Assembly (NCBI GenBank): GCA_904063045.1
Contig: CAJFCJ010000031.1
Location: forward strand, 219,105 to 283,104
Origin: Dimorphilus gyrociliatus
Taxonomy: Eukaryota; Animalia; Annelida
Length of the DNA stretch: 64,000 nt
Direction: 5' to 3'
The number at the start of each line of letters is the position of its first letter. The stretch's first letter is position 1. Of this stretch, positions 24,501-33,276 are shown one piece after another. A model generated the notes under the pieces. That model was not told the DNA's origin. It ran no database searches and saw only the letters and a list, made by a program, of their open reading frames with translations. Position numbers and translations under genes: made by a program.

Positions 24501-26435
24501 GTGAATGATTGCAACAAAGTATATTTTGAGAAAAAGAATGAATGCTAATGGAAAAAATCGTTTCTTTCTAGTTTAGTGTTTAGGAAATGAAAATAGCAGT
24601 AAAAAATGTAAGAAATAGAAAAATAAAGCACTCTCCGGAATAGGGATTTAATTTATGGGATTTAATCACTTCCTTTCTGAAAAACAGTAATAATTAATGC
24701 ACCGGCGGATTAATGAGCCCGCTAGATGACAGTAACAACAAGGCTATTGCGATTAATCCTATTTTTAAATCTGGAAAATTTTTTGTCTATTTATCATGAC
24801 AAAATTGACAAACAAAATTGTAGTTTTAGCTCATTTGTTTGTTTGTTTAAAAAGAGAATAGCAGAAGATGAAATGATAGAAAAGCGACGTTATATTGTAT
24901 ATACAGTATATTCTTTTGTAATTGAACCACGTAGAACATCTTAGTATTGAATTTCAGGCAGAAATAGCTTCTCATTTCATAAGAAACTAAATAGAAACAA
25001 AGCATCCAGATAGTGGAACCTTTCATTTCCGACAGTACTAACATGACCGTCCACTAATTTGCAGAAGTTTTTCCATTGCTATTAATCTAGAAGATAACAA
25101 TTCTCGAGATATAAATTCATCTTTTACTTATGTAATTGTAACCGATTGCTCTCAGGAATCTTTCAAAAGTAGCCGCTTAAATAGCTTCCGGTTAAATCCA
25201 GTGGAATAATAGCATTGATAGGAGGTAAAGGGAAGGGTTATCCTTGATAAATTACACCATCACCAGAATTCAATACTCCGGAAGCTTGTAGAAATTACTT
25301 TTCGAAGTATTTTTTTTAAACTTTGGCAAATAGAGTCAACCTTTTTATAATTTCAATTTTTTAAGAAAGATCAACTGAATAAAGAGAAAAAAGCTGATTA
25401 CTTTTTACTTAAAAATCAAGATAATCCGATTTCCTATCGTTAGAATGAATATTTTCCGTTCGCTGTTTTCACATTGTACTTTTGCAGTACACACTCGTAT
25501 ACATATATTTCAATACAAAAAGTTTTATATAAAATATCAATCTATTATTTCATCTGTACTAGAATTGTACCAACTTTAGTGCTAGGATCAATTCGAATAT
25601 AATCTCCTTTCCTTCTTTGTCTGCATTATACTAAAAAAATATGTCTGTATGGTGATATTTGTATTAAATATAAATCCTATTAGCTTTATTGAAGACTGTA
25701 TTCTGTATTTAGGCATCAACTTAATATAAACAACTTACATTTAAATATTTCAGTTTTATACTTTTTATACTGCAAAAGAGAAAGGTTTAATTAATTAAGT
25801 TGCGGTTTCAAATCTTAAAAAAGCTCTTATTCTTCATAAAAAGAAAATACAGACATAGTTTAATTATTTAACAACTTTTTCAAAGTTTTTCCTATTATTA
25901 TAAATACTAAATATAAGTATATTAAAAAGAAAAATTGCACATAAATCGTATGATCCACTAACTAACTAGATTTCTGGGTAAAATATGAATAATTTTAATA
26001 TTTTTTTGTAATATGAAATATCTGAAAATATATATAATTGAATATGTCTTATTTATTGTTAAAGACAATGTTTATTTTTTATTAAAATCATCATTATAGT
26101 GTAAAAAAATACTTGGCGGGTTCCTCTCCTCTAGTACATCTTTCACCCAGTTTAAACTGGTAGCGCCCAATTCGAACAATTCTTTTATTTTGTTAAACAA
26201 CAATTGCAAAAGTTTGTTTTTTTTTCATTGTCTTATCTTATCCATTTCAAAAGTTCAAATTCTGTATTATGCATGATATTTGTATAATTTTAATATAGCA
26301 TTGTTTAATTGCTGACTAGTTTCATTAACGAGGGCGTATACTCTGATAAGAAAATGTTTACTCTTTCCTTTTCTATTCTATTGTTCCGAAACATTAGTTA
26401 AACAAAAGAACTTATTTATTTATTGCAGCCTTAAT

Positions 26436-27956
26436 ATGTCTAATGAACAAGAAATCCCCGACCGAATGTATGGTTTGGTGAAAACAAAAGATGAAATAGG
26501 TTATGATTTTGATGAAAATATGATTGTCCCACATCCCATTGAAGATGAAGTGTTAATTAAGGTATCATACTTGCCTTCATAATATGTTAAATTAAATTTG
26601 TTTTCATTACGATCACGCAATTTGTTTGCTTCTCTAAAAATAAATATAAGTACAGGTAGAGTCTGTGTCCTTGTGCGGTAGTGATCTAGTTCTATGGAAT
26701 TGGACCGATGCTGCTAAGGTTATTGCATCAATTCCATTTACCCCAGGCCACGAATGTTGCGGAACAGTTGTCAAATGCGGACCCGAATCAAAGCTTCAGG
26801 TAGGAAGAATAATAAAACTTCTCCACCCTAATTAATAATTTTAACGAATCATCATTTCGCTCTTATACCTTTTGAGTAAATCTTCCACAGATCGGTGATC
26901 GAGTTGCGGTGGAGAATCATTTTTTTTGCGGTAAATGCCATCAGTGTAAGCATGATAGAGGAGATATTTGCAGTGATATGGGACAGTACGGCCATGGAAA
27001 AAAAACTCCGTACGGCGGCTGCTCGCAATATTCAATCGTATCCTCCAAGTATTGCTATAAATTAGGCAACATAATAAGTTGGTAGAGCATTGAAATATTT
27101 CAAACACATCAAATATTATCCACTAAAAATAGATGCTGATGAAGCTGCTTTATTAGAGCCTTTGGGTGTTGCTCACAATGCCGTTGAGAATTTAGGTGAC
27201 TTGAATAGGGAAGATGTCCTGATTATTGGTGCTGGTCCTATTGGGCTTATGGCAATTCCCTGCGTTAAAAGTTGCGGGGCAAACAGGTGTAAATACAATT
27301 TATATACAGGTATATATTGTATTTGTTTAATAATACATAAATATTTTTGTTAAAAAGAGTCATCATATGCGATATAAACGAGAAAAGACTACAGTTTGCC
27401 AAGGAGATGGGCGCCGATCACGTGATTAATACTAATCATCAAAATCTTTCAGAGGTAAGATGGATACTACGAAAAACATTTATACTTGACATGCAAAATA
27501 CTGATAAATGCCTAAGATCTGTCCTATTTATTCAGTCTATATCTCAACTGACAAACGGAGATGGAATTGGCCGATTGATAGAATGTAGCGGAGCAGTGCA
27601 AATAGCTTCTATTATGTTTCAGCTAGTGAGAAAGGGAGGCCACATTGTACTAGTAGGTCTCGTCAAGCAGCCGTTAATTATCGAAAATTATATGCGTGAT
27701 TTAGGTTCGTATATTGTATCATATCACTAAAAACTAATAGTTATTATATCTTTAATTAGTTTTTAAGTCAATTCAAATTCGTGGCATTCACGGAAGAAGA
27801 ATATTTCATACTTGGCGCGAAACTGAGAAACTAGTGGAATCGAAACGCGTTGACATATCGAAGCTAATTTCTCATAAATTCCAATTTAAAGATTATAAGA
27901 AAGCGTTCGAAATCCTACTAAGTGGAGAAGCTCATAAAATTATCCTTACCCCGTAA
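26436..27956 (+). CDS. TDH: Zinc-dependent L-threonine 3-dehydrogenase of the MDR superfamily (bacterial/archaeal Tdh type), 357 aa. Seven exons: 26436-26561, 26656-26799, 26891-27077, 27133-27286, 27358-27454, 27536-27704, 27760-27956 (stop TAA 27954-27956).
   Basis: The spliced protein contains catalytic-zinc motifs CGSDLVLW...GHECCGTVV and the structural-zinc tetrad C-G-K-C-H-Q-C-x7-C. E. coli Tdh has CGHCRNCRGGRTHLC. The Rossmann motif is VLIIGAGPIGLMA. The C-terminus VFKSIQIRGIHGRRIFHTWRETEKLVES matches E. coli [28 protein letters not shown], and KLGNIINADEAALLEPLG matches KIPDNISDDLAAIFDPFG. All six introns are 72-95 bp with GT-AG and consistent phases. Confidence 0.8.
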
Positions 27957-28057
27957 TATTCAAAGGGATCAGTATCTGATTTTCATGTATTGATAATGGA
28001 AAAACTATAGCAAGATAATAAAAGTGAATAAGTAAATAGTGAATTTTCTTGATCTTG

Positions 28058-29242
28058 TTAATTGGGGTCTTGTTCTTGTTTTAATATTGCATCGATAAAA
28101 GTGCTCTTTTCATCCATCAAGAAACCTCTATCCAAGTCCCCTTGTTGATTTTCTCTTTGTTTCCTCTGTCGCTGTTGCCTCATACGTTGGGCCCTCTCCG
28201 CTGAATAGCCGTGATTTATTTCGTTTAAATCTCTTTGCTGATAAAAAGTAAGACTCAATCTCTTCGGTAATAAGCTGTTAGGTTTTGTGAGAGCAGTTGT
28301 AGCATGAGTTTCATATTTAGAATATTCAATTAGAACAGATCCGTTTGTTAGCTCTAATCCTAAACCTCCTACCGAACCCCCTGGAGTTGTACTGTAATGG
28401 GACAGTATGTGCAACTGCTCTGGCTTACGTTTCAATGGCACTAACGTATAGATAACCGAACAACCTTCATCCATATTCCAAAAATCCTGATGAGTATGGG
28501 CAGAATAATCCATATTAATGTTTACAGTTGAATAAGGTCTTTCAGATCCAAAGCCAATTCGACAATTATTATTCAGTTTAACCATATTTGCGAAGCATTT
28601 GGGAACAAGATCTTTTTGAATCTCAGCGACATCTTTTGCACATTCATTAATAAGTTGGGCAACTTCTCTAGGTAAATTACCATATTTTTTCATATCCCTA
28701 TTTTGGGCTTGAGCAAACCCACAACCTTCTAGATATGGTGAATAAGAGCAGCCTACGGTATAGCTTCTACCTTTAAATTTTTCAAACACTCCTTGGCAAG
28801 AGCAGGTTCTTGAACGATTCCAAGTACAAGCTCTAGGCCTTTCAAGCTTACTATTGCACATATTGGCACATAACATACCAAAGAGTAATTTTTGGTCGTA
28901 ATAGGAAAACTCGTTTTCCCATTGAACAATTGCAATTATAAATAGGGAGTATTTACAAGTATGATATGGCCTTTTTCGATATAGTATAAGTAATTGTTCA
29001 TGATCACTCTCATTTTCGTTTTTAGAAAGAACTTCAAGAGCTTTGGGACAACCTTTTCCGTCAACTCCAACATACTTTTTATAGTAAACTGGAATTAGCC
29101 TTGCTTTTCTTTCCTCAAATATTTCACTTAGATCTTCTTCATTTTTTCCGTGGCCCAAATGAAAATATATATTACCTTCCAACAATTCAGTATTAATATT
29201 ACAATCGCAGGGAGGTATACTAGCGTTTCGGATGAAGGACAT
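28058..29242 (-). CDS. TET: Minimal TET/JBP-family 5-methylcytosine dioxygenase of 394 aa, intronless. It comprises the Cys-rich domain plus the double-stranded beta-helix with a very short low-complexity insert, and has no CXXC domain.
   Basis: Alignment to the human TET2 catalytic domain from memory. PTCDCVEQ...GPFYTHLGAG matches PPCDCNINTELLEGNIYFHLGHG. AGHTCEAAVIVILILVWEG matches RPYHTCKYSLFIIAIVQWEN. RRCALNEERTCACQG matches RACTWNRSRTCSCQG. SFGCSWSMYYNGCKFARS matches TVGCSYSPYLEGCGFAQA. The Fe-binding HxD AHAHRDLHNM matches AHTHQDFWNM, and EQLHVLPLY matches EQLHILSHY. The distal His and 2OG Arg [36 protein letters not shown] match GSVLIEYSKYETHATTALTKPNSLLPKRLSLTFYQQ. There is an in-frame stop 27 nt upstream of the ATG. 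Confidence 0.85.
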   Translation of the reverse strand: MSFIRNASIPPCDCNINTELLEGNIYFHLGHGKNEEDLSEIFEERKARLIPVYYKKYVGVDGKGCPKALEVLSKNENESDHEQLLILYRKRPYHTCKYSLFIIAIVQWENEFSYYDQKLLFGMLCANMCNSKLERPRACTWNRSRTCSCQGVFEKFKGRSYTVGCSYSPYLEGCGFAQAQNRDMKKYGNLPREVAQLINECAKDVAEIQKDLVPKCFANMVKLNNNCRIGFGSERPYSTVNINMDYSAHTHQDFWNMDEGCSVIYTLVPLKRKPEQLHILSHYSTTPGGSVGGLGLELTNGSVLIEYSKYETHATTALTKPNSLLPKRLSLTFYQQRDLNEINHGYSAERAQRMRQQRQRKQRENQQGDLDRGFLMDEKSTFIDAILKQEQDPN

Positions 29243-30726: not shown

Positions 30727-33276
30727 CTATTCTTCTGGGACATTTGAGTTTGTGGGAACGATGGCTCCGCCTCCGATTAATCCATTTGCAGTATTGAAAA
30801 GATTAATTGGACTATTTCCATCAGTGATTAAAGTTGATTTGATGCCAAGACCTTGCAATAACTTAGCTTGCATCTCTGGTCCAGCGACGGCGATTGCCCT
30901 GATGGTATCAGCTCCGATAGCATCAATCATTCTCTTGAATTTTTCTACTTCAATATCAGCCAATTCTTTTGCTCTAGATATTTCAAGTCCATTAGATTCT
31001 TTTGTATATTGAAGGGCTTGAGTCAATCTTTCTAATTCAGCATCAGCCTCGATCTTCAATGCTTTAGCCTTCAGTTCAGCTTGTTCCACATTGGCTTCTG
31101 AATCGATTCGGATAGCTTCAGCTCGGCTCTCAGCCTCTGCCTTTGCCTGTCCTCTGGCTTCTACAGCGGCAGACTGAGCTTGAAGCTCTAGCAGATTCTT
31201 CTTTGACTTTTCTACCTCAGCTTCGTCTTGGATTCTCTGTCTTTCTAATTTACCCTTAGCTTCTTGTTCTAATCTCTCTGCCTCTTGTCTGGCAGTAGCT
31301 TCTTGGGCTGCAACAGTGATTTCAATTGCCAATTGTACGGATTTTTGTAAAGCATCCCTCGTCCTTTGATCAACCGGTTCTACCGACTGAATATCGATAC
31401 TAGTAACAACGAGATTATTTTGTTTAAAGAGGAAGGATTCACCAATTTTGTTATTTTCTGTGTAACCGAAAACTGATCCACGGATGATGCGAGCAGAATT
31501 TTTGTGGAAATCATCAAATTGTACACTAGCAACAGCTCCTCTAATACGCGAGGCCATTGCTTTACAAGCATCACCAACGAAATCTGGTACGCTAAAAATC
31601 TTGGCGACATCTTGTTCATTGTCTTTCTGAACTTCAAAGTGCCAATTGTAACTAAGTTGAAGTTGAAGTCTGGCGTGATCAGCCGTTTCAACAACAATAA
31701 TATCTGTACAAAAGTCAGGTCCCAAGAGGAGACAGAGACTCTTTATAACATTTGGTTTCTTGGGTTTCCCTCCAGAAAGAGATAATTGTGTGAATTGTTC
31801 ATCAGGATCAAGCATGACCAATTCAGGTCCGAAAATAATTCTAGCTTTTTTCTGCTTATAATCGTATATTTGTACGGCGGCGTTGTGAGGAACTCGGAAA
31901 GTGACTACTCTAGTTTTATCTCTTGGTTTCCCCTCTACACCAGTGGATCTTCTATCAGATCGGTCTGCAATAGGATCTTTACCAGTGGTCAATAGACCCT
32001 CAACTACTGGGGGTAATTTCTTTTCCCAAAGTTCCTCATCTTGTGTAAGCATATAAGTACCGCTGGTGACAGCTCTAACTTTTCCGTTCTTAATATTTCT
32101 CACATAGATACCTTCATTCTCATCCAAAGGTATGGCAGTTCTCTTGGTTACTACCTCTACTTCAACTGGTGGCATATATTCGACAGGTCCTCTAATCATC
32201 CACTTATCACCTGGTTGCCTGGTAACATCGCCATCTTGAAATAATTCGTTGGATTTCAAAATCACACCTTCGTTTTCTCCTAAAACGTATACATTTTGAA
32301 CACCCTTTTCCAGCGATTCTCCAGGTAAAAGGAAGAAACTTTTTTCTCCTCTGACTAGCTTCTTTTTGCCTAATTGAGGCTTGTTATGTTCATCAACAGG
32401 ATCTAGTATCACACAGTATTGGCGGTTTGTTAAAGTTGTAATATCTACAAAACCCATAACTTTTTCGTATACGTGTGGTATATGAGTTTCAGTGTCAGAT
32501 AACTTGATAAGCCATTCTTCTCCGTTTTTTCTTGTGACATTAAAGTCGTCTTTAAACGTACGACTGGCCTGCATATGTAGAGCTCTCTTTTCGCTCAATA
32601 CGTAAGCGTTGACGACATCAACAACTTCCTCGTAAACGCCAGGAAGATAGGCGCCCGTATTCTTTACTAACCATTCTTCTCCCGTAACTCTATTAATGCC
32701 TTCGAAATCCTCACATTCCTTTCTAGCTCTAAGTTTCAAGGCTTGATTAGGCATAATAACAGTTGCTCTAATAGTTTCATCAACGACAACTTCTTTTCTT
32801 GGGATATAAGTTCCCGGTCCCTTGAAAAGCCATTCATCACCGGCAATTCTTTTCTTTCCTTCCCCATCAGTAAAATCCAAGACAGCTCTCAATCTAAGAG
32901 CAGAGTTTGCAACCACAATAGTAAGGGGCTTTACTGGCTGTAATAAAACTTCTCCAGGGTACAAGGGGAAAGGATCTTGAGTTAGACGAATTTCTTTATC
33001 GGCATGAGCCAACTTTACTTGACCATATCCGTCTAAGATTACTTCACCATCGCCATTTCTTTGAACAGGATTTTCAATAATACAATATTGTCTTGGAGGA
33101 ACTGTTATCATTCGTTCCGGTCCCAATACGACCCTTTCATTATCTTGTCTAATGTATGTTTTTGGACCAACCTCAATTCGAGATACATTGGTATTTTGAT
33201 CCAAAACATGCAAATAGAAATAGGGAGGAATACGGAAGAGAGAATTATCTTCCTGTACAGTTTTTCGGAGAGACAT
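30727..33276 (-). CDS. MVP: Major vault protein (MVP), 849 aa, a single uninterrupted ORF (intronless).
   Basis: The ORF-track ORF is collinear with human MVP from memory. [37 protein letters not shown] matches [36 protein letters not shown]. Vault repeats carry [23 protein letters not shown] and the shoulder [12 protein letters not shown]. The cap-helix region has [39 protein letters not shown]...[23 protein letters not shown]...[32 protein letters not shown]. Confidence 0.95.

Follow-up and report, generated by a model that had tools for sequence, protein, structure and literature searches.

L-threonine 3-dehydrogenase (TDH) is known from two protein types of unrelated fold. Mouse TDH is of the short-chain dehydrogenase/reductase (SDR) type, the characterised TDHs of the medium-chain dehydrogenase/reductase (MDR) type are prokaryotic, and in the MDR classification of 2010 only one of the 351 members of the TDH family was eukaryotic. 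It was recently reported (Genome Biol Evol, July 2026; PMC13390645) that the Ciona gene KY21.Chr9.903 encodes an MDR-type TDH and that such genes are present in spiralians, ecdysozoans, cnidarians, sponges, and tunicates. In the published tree, the Ciona orthologue was placed with bacterial TDHs, apart from sorbitol dehydrogenase (SDH) and alcohol dehydrogenase (ADH), and of two origin scenarios, ancestral presence and horizontal transfer, an arthropod-to-tunicate transfer was favoured; neither Dimorphilus nor intron positions are mentioned in that work (PMC13390645). The gene described here is a member of this family from the small marine annelid Dimorphilus gyrociliatus and occupies positions 26436-27956 on the plus strand of a 64,000-nucleotide stretch of DNA (hereafter the window; NCBI GenBank assembly GCA_904063045.1, contig CAJFCJ010000031.1, forward-strand positions 219,105 to 283,104). 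Judged by its sequence, the encoded protein is a zinc enzyme of the MDR type; among characterised enzymes it comes nearest to the bacterial and archaeal L-threonine 3-dehydrogenases, and it is clearly no animal sorbitol dehydrogenase. The gene has been passed down vertically since at least the annelid-mollusc ancestor.

Several comparisons place the protein next to the MDR TDHs. In Pfam it matches ADH_N (88 bits) and ADH_zinc_N (104 bits) and no SDR or epimerase domain, in keeping with the two-domain MDR fold of a GroES-like catalytic domain and a Rossmann domain. In NCBIfam, the two L-threonine 3-dehydrogenase (EC 1.1.1.103) equivalogs, NF003808 and TIGR00692, rank first over the full length (295.3 and 280.1 bits), scyllo-inosose 3-dehydrogenase follows at 200 bits, and all other families score 200 bits or less; the same two hidden Markov models (HMMs) are the best matches in 20 of the 20 family members. 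A sequence search of the PDB returned archaeal and bacterial TDHs at 188-218 bits and sorbitol dehydrogenases at ~150 bits. By blastp, the protein is 35.0% identical to E. coli Tdh (reference sequence from the annotated K-12 genome), 34.6% to the TDH of T. kodakarensis, and 31.3% to human SORD, with scores of 212-221 bits for TDH versus 145-155 bits for SDH and arabinitol dehydrogenase (LAD); the human SORD and ADH5 references are 100% identical to PDB chains 1pl6 and 1mc5. A structure predicted by AlphaFold from an alignment of 20 sequences (mean predicted local distance difference test score 90.4) was searched with Foldseek, and the top five PDB matches are five MDR TDH structures of four enzymes (2dfv, 5kia, 3gfb, 2dq4, and 2d8a), with template modelling (TM) scores of 0.88-0.91 and root-mean-square deviations of 1.7-2.3, above all polyol and alcohol dehydrogenases. 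In likelihood quartets, 68 of 80 pair the family with TDH, and among those with a weight above 0.95 the count is 28 versus 1. The name "TDH-like" is used here because of the profile scores, the fold ranking, and the shared motifs, with no claim to a resolved tree.

An earlier note on this DNA had recognised an MDR zinc enzyme as opposed to the SDR-type TDH of animals, and the HMM scores, the PDB sequence search, the fold search, and blastp all bear this out. Its further label, "E. coli Tdh type", holds insofar as TDHs are the nearest characterised enzymes, but the protein is part of a clade specific to eukaryotes, whose identity to the prokaryotic proteins found does not exceed ~42% and which carries an insertion and a CGSDxx motif. 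The protein itself scores below the curated TDH cut-offs. Compared with the prokaryotic MDR TDHs (MDR014; E. coli Tdh, P. horikoshii 2dfv/2d8a, T. kodakarensis 3gfb, and T. thermophilus 2dq4; 33-35% identity), it has the same fold, both zinc sites, the ExH histidine, the GxxGRxxxxTW motif, and an NAD-type Asp. It differs from them in its sub-cut-off scores, a 3-residue insertion, replacement of Thr by Ser and of His by Val or Asn after the catalytic Cys, and an altered GNAV loop, and also in lacking an adjoining kbl gene and in the spliceosomal introns of its gene. The animal SDH/polyol family (MDR005; human SORD 1pl6, sheep 3qe3, and whitefly ketose reductase 1e3j) belongs to the same superfamily and shares the catalytic Cys/His/Glu at ~31% identity, but it forms a separate, well-supported clade; mammalian SDH lacks the four structural cysteines, and SDH, ketose reductase, and IdnD have a 2-residue deletion. 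With the SDR-type mitochondrial TDH, which resembles UDP-galactose 4-epimerase and is found in mouse and trypanosomes, only the reaction would be shared if the Dimorphilus protein is a TDH; the fold is unrelated, and the Dimorphilus protein matches only Pfam domains of the ADH_N and ADH_zinc_N type and has no presequence.

In the active site, TDH-type features are partly retained and partly altered. The catalytic zinc ligands C49, H74, E75, and E161 align with C38, H63, E64, and D148 of E. coli Tdh, and the structural zinc motif reads C103-x2-C106-x2-C109-x7-C117. Catalytic and structural ligands are invariant in all 20 family members aligned, so the two zinc sites proposed in the earlier note, the structural one with C-x2-C-x2-C-x7-C spacing, are confirmed, and all four structural cysteines persisted on re-alignment. 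The nucleotide-binding site is of the nicotinamide adenine dinucleotide (NAD) type, with G185-x-G187-x-x-G190 followed by D209; an acidic residue that ends the second Rossmann strand is a mark of the use of NAD rather than its phosphate, NADP. The protein also keeps H100, the counterpart of E. coli His90. It was reported for Bacillus TDH that the mutant H95A, equivalent to E. coli H90, loses or has lowered activity and that N157A has raised activity. The GxxGRxxxxTW motif is preserved as G301-I-H-G-R305...T310-W311 (GIHGRRIFHTW), and the 2-residue deletion present at this site in SDH, ketose reductase, and IdnD is not found in the Dimorphilus protein. The longer motif GIHGRRIFHTWRE, residues 301-313, is identical to its E. 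coli Tdh counterpart at 7 of 13 residues. It had been described as a C-terminus almost superimposable on that of E. coli Tdh; the motif is real, but it lies ~45 residues ahead of the C-terminus of a 357-residue protein whose overall identity to E. coli Tdh is 35%.

Identity is highest, at 46-57%, to proteins of molluscs (including Lottia, Patella, Haliotis, Octopus, Biomphalaria, and Mya), the annelid Capitella, tunicates (Ciona, Phallusia, Styela, and Clavelina), decapods and krill, and the sponge Amphimedon. Orthologues, which the earlier note had proposed to look for in related genomes, are thus present across animal phyla, and many of those in invertebrates already carry the NCBI label "L-threonine 3-dehydrogenase(-like)". 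The Ciona KY21.Chr9.903 protein (P0046) falls in the same clade; it is 50% identical and shares the GHGKxT insertion, the CGSDxx motif, and all zinc ligands. More remote members are found in Foraminifera (Nonionella, Elphidium, and Bolivina) and the protist Flectonema. Three signatures, a GHG(K/R)xT insertion, VENH(F/Y)(F/Y)C, and HGR(R/K)I(F/Y), occur in the Dimorphilus, animal, foraminiferal, and Flectonema sequences, and none of the aligned prokaryotic sequences has the 3-residue insertion. Monophyly of the eukaryotic sequences received 99% bootstrap support in neighbour joining (NJ) with Kimura distances and 100% with maximum-likelihood (ML) distances. Prokaryotic relatives reach at most ~42% identity, and the contigs inspected (P0109 and P0113) show dense bacterial gene contexts; the best named prokaryotic genomes, metagenome-assembled genomes of Synergistales, Clostridiales, and Brocadiaceae, stand at 35-36.5% identity and lack the insertion. 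When 185,579 prokaryotic species genomes were scanned for the conserved motifs of the clade, no relative bearing them turned up, although a pattern search of this kind could miss divergent ones, and a second prokaryotic scan, seeded with bacterial intermediates, returned only relatives at 36.5% identity or less.

Some members of the clade have features of their own. Foraminiferal sequences P0078 (Nonionella stella), P0090 and P0121 (Elphidium margaritaceum), and P0091 (a Logan contig) carry ~60-130 additional N-terminal residues that include a W-x-C-x2-C...C-x2-C motif. The extension weakly matches a RanBP-type zinc ribbon in P0078 and P0090 (~16 bits, against a Pfam threshold of 27), and P0091 gives no match. 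To our knowledge, no such fusion on an MDR dehydrogenase has been described. Intronless copies of the family were found in Styela clava (L005 2001-3050) and on two metagenome contigs (L006 3292-4368 and L007 2691-3767). Both metagenome contigs are sparsely genic and eukaryote-like, and in the NJ trees the metagenome protein P0030 clusters with its ascidian counterparts from Phallusia and Ciona.

The history of the gene can be read from its introns. The genomic loci of seven orthologues were examined, giving eight genomes together with Dimorphilus, and introns were mapped on the protein alignment. In alignment column and phase, introns 3-6 of Dimorphilus are the same as four of the four introns of Capitella, four of the four of Lottia, and four of the five of Octopus. 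These shared introns sit in ungapped, conserved alignment blocks, and with ~1070 possible sites, chance agreement of their positions would be negligible. Because Capitella, Lottia, and Octopus have introns at these same four positions, the gene predates the annelid-mollusc split, and a transfer specific to Dimorphilus is excluded. Introns 1 and 2, the two longest of the six, both interrupt the 5′ half of the gene and were seen in Dimorphilus alone; on grounds of parsimony they are best read as gains in the Dimorphilus lineage, whose genome has been portrayed as one of predominant intron loss.

Outside Spiralia, the intron sets are different. Homarus has eight introns and Clavelina seven, with five positions in common and none shared with spiralians; Dimorphilus has the spiralian set plus two introns of its own, and none of its introns matches one of Clavelina. 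Amphimedon has 11 introns, none at the exact position of any other set, and the Styela copy is intronless. Such intron maps are a type of data not used in the published discussion: they fix vertical descent within Spiralia and tie decapod to tunicate genes through the five common introns, and no intron is common to the sponge, spiralian, and crustacean/tunicate sets. The orthologues of Homarus americanus (L004 2001-6168) and Clavelina lepadiformis (L013 1001-4837) have 58% protein identity. Their five common introns bear on the published idea of an arthropod-to-tunicate transfer and are equally compatible with ancestral bilaterian introns. In Amphimedon queenslandica, two tandem copies are present (L003 3001-4728 and 4810-7257); the introns of the mapped copy measure 44-165 nt, and three of them lie just 3-4 nt off positions used in other animals.

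With regard to the deeper origin of the family, a scenario that seems plausible, though short of an even chance, is that the clade was not handed down with its introns from the earliest animals. An intronless copy, derived from an ancient transfer among marine eukaryotes or from retroposition, would instead have reached or survived in the stem lineages of sponges, spiralians, and crustaceans/tunicates, each of which would have gained its own introns. The three intron sets (11 in the sponge, 4 in spiralians, and 8 and 7 in Homarus and Clavelina) have no common position, and intronless copies do exist, in Styela and on the eukaryote-like metagenome contigs. The patchy distribution, confined to marine organisms and including foraminifera and Flectonema, is in line with this scenario, and the monophyly of the clade with its unique insertion points to a single entry into eukaryotes. 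On the other hand, disjoint sets could also come from intron loss combined with gain, and the near-coincidence of some sponge positions with those of other sets (within 3-4 nt) speaks against independent insertion. The comparison covers eight genomes, with cnidarians outside the sample, and the foraminiferal and Flectonema sequences are transcriptomes and therefore carry no intron structure. The scenario is compatible with either function of the enzyme, whether it acts on threonine or on another substrate. The earlier note had left a choice between an ancient eukaryotic lineage and a transferred gene that was later intronised; a recent transfer into Dimorphilus is contradicted by the shared introns, whereas an older, intronless arrival may have occurred, as the disjoint sponge, spiralian, and crustacean/tunicate sets would allow.

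As to function, it seems fairly probable that this single-copy nuclear, vertically inherited gene encodes a zinc- and NAD+-dependent MDR enzyme of a eukaryote-specific sister lineage of the prokaryotic TDHs, with L-threonine as the most likely substrate. From the conserved zinc ligands and cofactor motif, the enzyme is predicted to oxidise a secondary alcohol in a zinc- and NAD+-dependent manner. Briefly, the catalytic zinc on C49, H74, and E75 (with E161) would polarise the β-hydroxyl of the substrate, and the hydride would pass to NAD+ held by the GAGPIG/D209 Rossmann site, while the second zinc, on C103, C106, C109, and C117, would steady the lobe that builds the oligomer. L-threonine would in this way be converted to 2-amino-3-oxobutanoate. 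The protein is probably cytosolic, as its short acidic N-terminus offers no presequence. In the AlphaFold model, the first strand begins at about residue 10, and the ~10 residues ahead of it include three acidic ones; inspection of the N-terminus for mitochondrial targeting thus agrees with the earlier impression that it is not obviously a presequence. The N-terminal extension is 0-11 residues long in 13 animal orthologues, and no C-terminal SKL-like signal is present in the animal orthologues of the Dimorphilus protein.

In the cytosol, 2-amino-3-oxobutanoate tends to decarboxylate to aminoacetone. The unstable product may thus proceed through aminoacetone and methylglyoxal to D-lactate instead of reaching mitochondrial glycine C-acetyltransferase (GCAT). 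Decarboxylation to aminoacetone would fit a report that octopus tissue turns threonine into D-lactate (cited in PMC13390645). If the clade truly consists of TDHs, threonine breakdown in many marine animals would have an additional route, cytosolic and independent of the SDR enzyme, that could account for the threonine-derived D-lactate reported in octopus.

A number of observations weigh against assigning the enzyme to threonine and to the TDH branch. Both TDH equivalog scores fall under their curated cut-offs (295.3 against 380, and 280.1 against 458.35), and TDH activity is for this reason put forward as a prediction from sequence. Across the family, CGSD(I/L)(N/V) takes the place of CGTDxH, with CGSDLV in Dimorphilus and CGSDIN in most orthologues; by analogy with Ser48/His51 of horse liver ADH, this change removes the proton-relay histidine. 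GVAHN likewise replaces GNAV(H/D) family-wide, turning the loop Asn into Val, and the clade-specific insertion (GHGKKT) follows the structural lobe. No homologue of kbl/GCAT was found in the window or beside the bacterial relatives, and a literature search found no enzyme assay for any member of the eukaryotic clade. In a 21-taxon four-cluster comparison of the deep branching, which did not separate a place beside TDH from one beside SDH, log-likelihoods were -12768.3 with the family beside TDH, -12767.7 with it beside SDH/polyol dehydrogenases, and -12771.3 for the third backbone, and resampling of estimated log-likelihoods (RELL) gave 0.44 for a sister relation to TDH versus 0.55 for one to SDH/polyol, and 0.01 for the disfavoured third backbone, which joins TDH and SDH to the exclusion of the family; the taxon set did not include intermediate bacterial sequences, and the power of the test may have suffered from this. 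The TDH/SDH/ADH backbone in NJ trees, whether built from Kimura distances or from ML distances under a Gonnet-derived model with gamma rates, received 6-51% support, and for that reason no resolved sister group is claimed. Lastly, a bacterial MDR protein, PbfG, with 32.5% identity to E. coli TDH proved to be a 2-hydroxyethylphosphonate dehydrogenase (PMC13576164), and this precedent means that similarity at such a level does not fix the substrate.

It is therefore conceivable, though rather unlikely, that the same gene and fold serve another substrate, such as a β-hydroxy amino acid, an amino alcohol, a diol or polyol, or a phosphonate alcohol, and that the TDH name is a carried-over annotation. 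The scores below both curated cut-offs, the changes beside the catalytic Cys and in the GNAV loop, the 3-residue insertion, the branching left undecided between TDH and SDH/polyol, and the example of PbfG, a TDH-like MDR that oxidises 2-hydroxyethylphosphonate (PMC13576164), would all suit such an enzyme. Against it, the TDH HMMs score ~95 bits above every other curated family in 20 of 20 members, and the TDH-type H100 and GR..TW motif are retained. PbfG resembles the Dimorphilus protein in being remote from E. coli TDH and in conserving the structural zinc site, but it binds its catalytic zinc through Cys45/His66/Cys166, with Cys in place of a Glu ligand, and is encoded in phosphonate gene clusters (PMC13576164), whereas the Dimorphilus protein retains both E75 and E161; the phosphonate-associated HMM scores just 117 bits. 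A combined picture can only be offered tentatively: a eukaryote-only MDR lineage, scattered among marine animals, foraminifera, and a euglenozoan, that may have arrived without introns in three stems and been intronised at least three times, with two later gains in Dimorphilus, and that may serve either a cytosolic threonine-to-D-lactate route or a substrate other than threonine.

That the protein is a divergent animal sorbitol/polyol dehydrogenase of the SORD family, and no relative of TDH, appears very improbable. The four-cluster likelihoods do not reject a sister relation to the SDH/LAD group as a whole, but animal SDH and fungal LAD form a clade of their own (95-100% bootstrap), separate from the eukaryotic TDH-like clade (99-100%), and the grouping with animal sorbitol dehydrogenases that the earlier note had named as counter-evidence was not seen. 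The structural zinc site, missing in mammalian SDH, is kept, the 2-residue deletion of SDH, ketose reductase, and IdnD is absent, scores against SDH lie 60-70 bits under those against TDH, and Foldseek puts all MDR TDH structures above every SDH. The published tree, which has the Ciona orthologue with bacterial TDH and apart from SDH and ADH, is also at variance with a SORD assignment (PMC13390645).

Contamination of the assembly is excluded, and the gene is a genuine host gene, because its neighbours are typical of animals, its codon usage is host-like, and its intron positions are shared with other animals. Its GC content at third codon positions (GC3) is 0.355, compared with 0.28-0.39 in neighbouring coding regions and 0.57 in E. 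coli tdh. Open reading frames (ORFs) in the flanks encode a TET/JBP oxygenase, major vault protein, MOZART2, a RasGAP, a protein kinase, and a CLASP/HEAT protein. The published median intron size in D. gyrociliatus is 66 bp, and the intron sizes of 55-94 nt fit this value and lend further support to a host origin. The earlier claim that the gene is not bacterial contamination is thereby upheld on three counts (GC3, animal neighbour genes, and the introns shared with Capitella, Lottia, and Octopus). Conserved synteny, which the earlier note had suggested looking for, did not emerge: in the flanks retrieved for the Lottia, Capitella, and Amphimedon loci, none of the genes neighbouring the orthologue recurs in the window. 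Within the window, no paralogue of the gene was found, which makes it single-copy there, nor any other copies of its six introns of the kind expected from introner-like repeats; a tRNA scan found none. A recent transfer from a prokaryote into Dimorphilus, or assembly contamination, followed by fast intron gain, can be given practically no credence, for although the closest characterised enzymes are prokaryotic, this explanation is refuted by the four introns at the same position and phase in another annelid and two molluscs, and it also runs against the 46-57% identity of animal orthologues versus 35-42% for the best prokaryotic relatives, the failure of the scan of 185,579 species genomes to find any prokaryotic relative with the clade motifs, and the animal gene neighbours and host-like codon usage on a 407-kb contig.

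The gene model was derived by hand from three-frame translation and splice consensus. It runs from the ATG at 26436 to the end of the stop codon at 27956 and comprises a coding sequence of 1074 nt in seven exons, which encodes 357 amino acids without a frame break. An exact spliced-mapping program recovered the same seven exons, and the product is 100% identical over all 357 residues to this deposited D. gyrociliatus protein (NCBI), whose gene lies on the 407-kb contig and which is on record from the genome assembly only. The gene is thus an ordinary, already deposited member of a described family. Since the orthologues are labelled by NCBI and the family is described in PMC13390645, it cannot be regarded as a new finding, and its weight for genome annotation is small, with the presence of the family in invertebrates already published. 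The earlier note was right about the coordinates, the number of introns, the N-terminus, and the zinc motifs, which agree with the seven-exon model and the full match to DgyrCDS14211. Its description of six phase-consistent GT-AG introns also stands, but not the lengths of 72-95 bp, since three of the six fall outside that range. All six introns begin with GT and end with AG, their phases are 0, 0, 1, 2, 0, and 1, and their lengths 94, 91, 55, 71, 81, and 55 nt. GC content is 0.40 in the exons and 0.15-0.31 in the introns.

All exons lie on the plus strand. Exon 1 (26436-26561) carries the start codon and residues 1-42, including the short acidic N-terminus MSNEQEIPDR ahead of the first β-strand, and is followed by intron 1 (26562-26655; 94 nt, phase 0), which has no match in Capitella, Lottia, or Octopus. 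A sequence resembling a splice acceptor, TTGCAG, precedes the ATG at 26424-26429. Exon 2 (26656-26799; residues 43-90) encodes the catalytic zinc ligands C49 (26674-26676) and H74 and E75 (26749-26754), and intron 2 (26800-26890; 91 nt, phase 0) is again specific to Dimorphilus. Exon 3 (26891-27077) covers residues 91-153, its last codon being split by intron 3, and contains E98-N-H100, the structural zinc motif C103/C106/C109/C117 (26927-26971), and the insertion GHGKKT. Intron 3 (27078-27132; 55 nt, phase 1) is the first of the four found at the same position and phase in Capitella, Lottia, and Octopus. Exon 4 (27133-27286; residues 153-204, with both end codons split) contributes the catalytic E161 and the Rossmann motif G185-A-G187-P-I-G190 (27228-27245), and is separated by the shared intron 4 (27287-27357; 71 nt, phase 2) from exon 5 (27358-27454; residues 204-236, first codon split by intron 4), where D209 is encoded at 27371-27373. 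After the shared intron 5 (27455-27535; 81 nt, phase 0), exon 6 (27536-27704; residues 237-293, last codon split by intron 6) supplies the second half of the nucleotide-binding domain. The shared intron 6 (27705-27759; 55 nt, phase 1) precedes exon 7 (27760-27956), which encodes residues 293-357 with the TDH-type motif GIHGRRIFHTW (27783-27815) and ends in a TAA stop. A hexamer resembling a polyadenylation signal, AATAAA, lies on the same strand at 28017-28022, 61 nt past the stop codon, and is a candidate by motif match only. In addition, intron 3 holds a 14-nt perfect palindrome, TTGAAATATTTCAA, at 27090-27103, which is probably a chance product of AT-rich sequence.

Two of the neighbouring genes show features of their own. 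The TET/JBP 2OG-Fe(II) oxygenase is encoded by an uninterrupted ORF of 394 amino acids on the minus strand (28058-29242; domain score 72 bits), which converges on the dehydrogenase gene so that the two stop codons are ~100 nt apart. It is shorter than usual for an animal TET protein, with no CXXC domain detected. Further downstream, major vault protein is encoded on the minus strand by a single uninterrupted ORF of 849 amino acids (30727-33276), and its gene appears to be intronless in the compact Dimorphilus genome.

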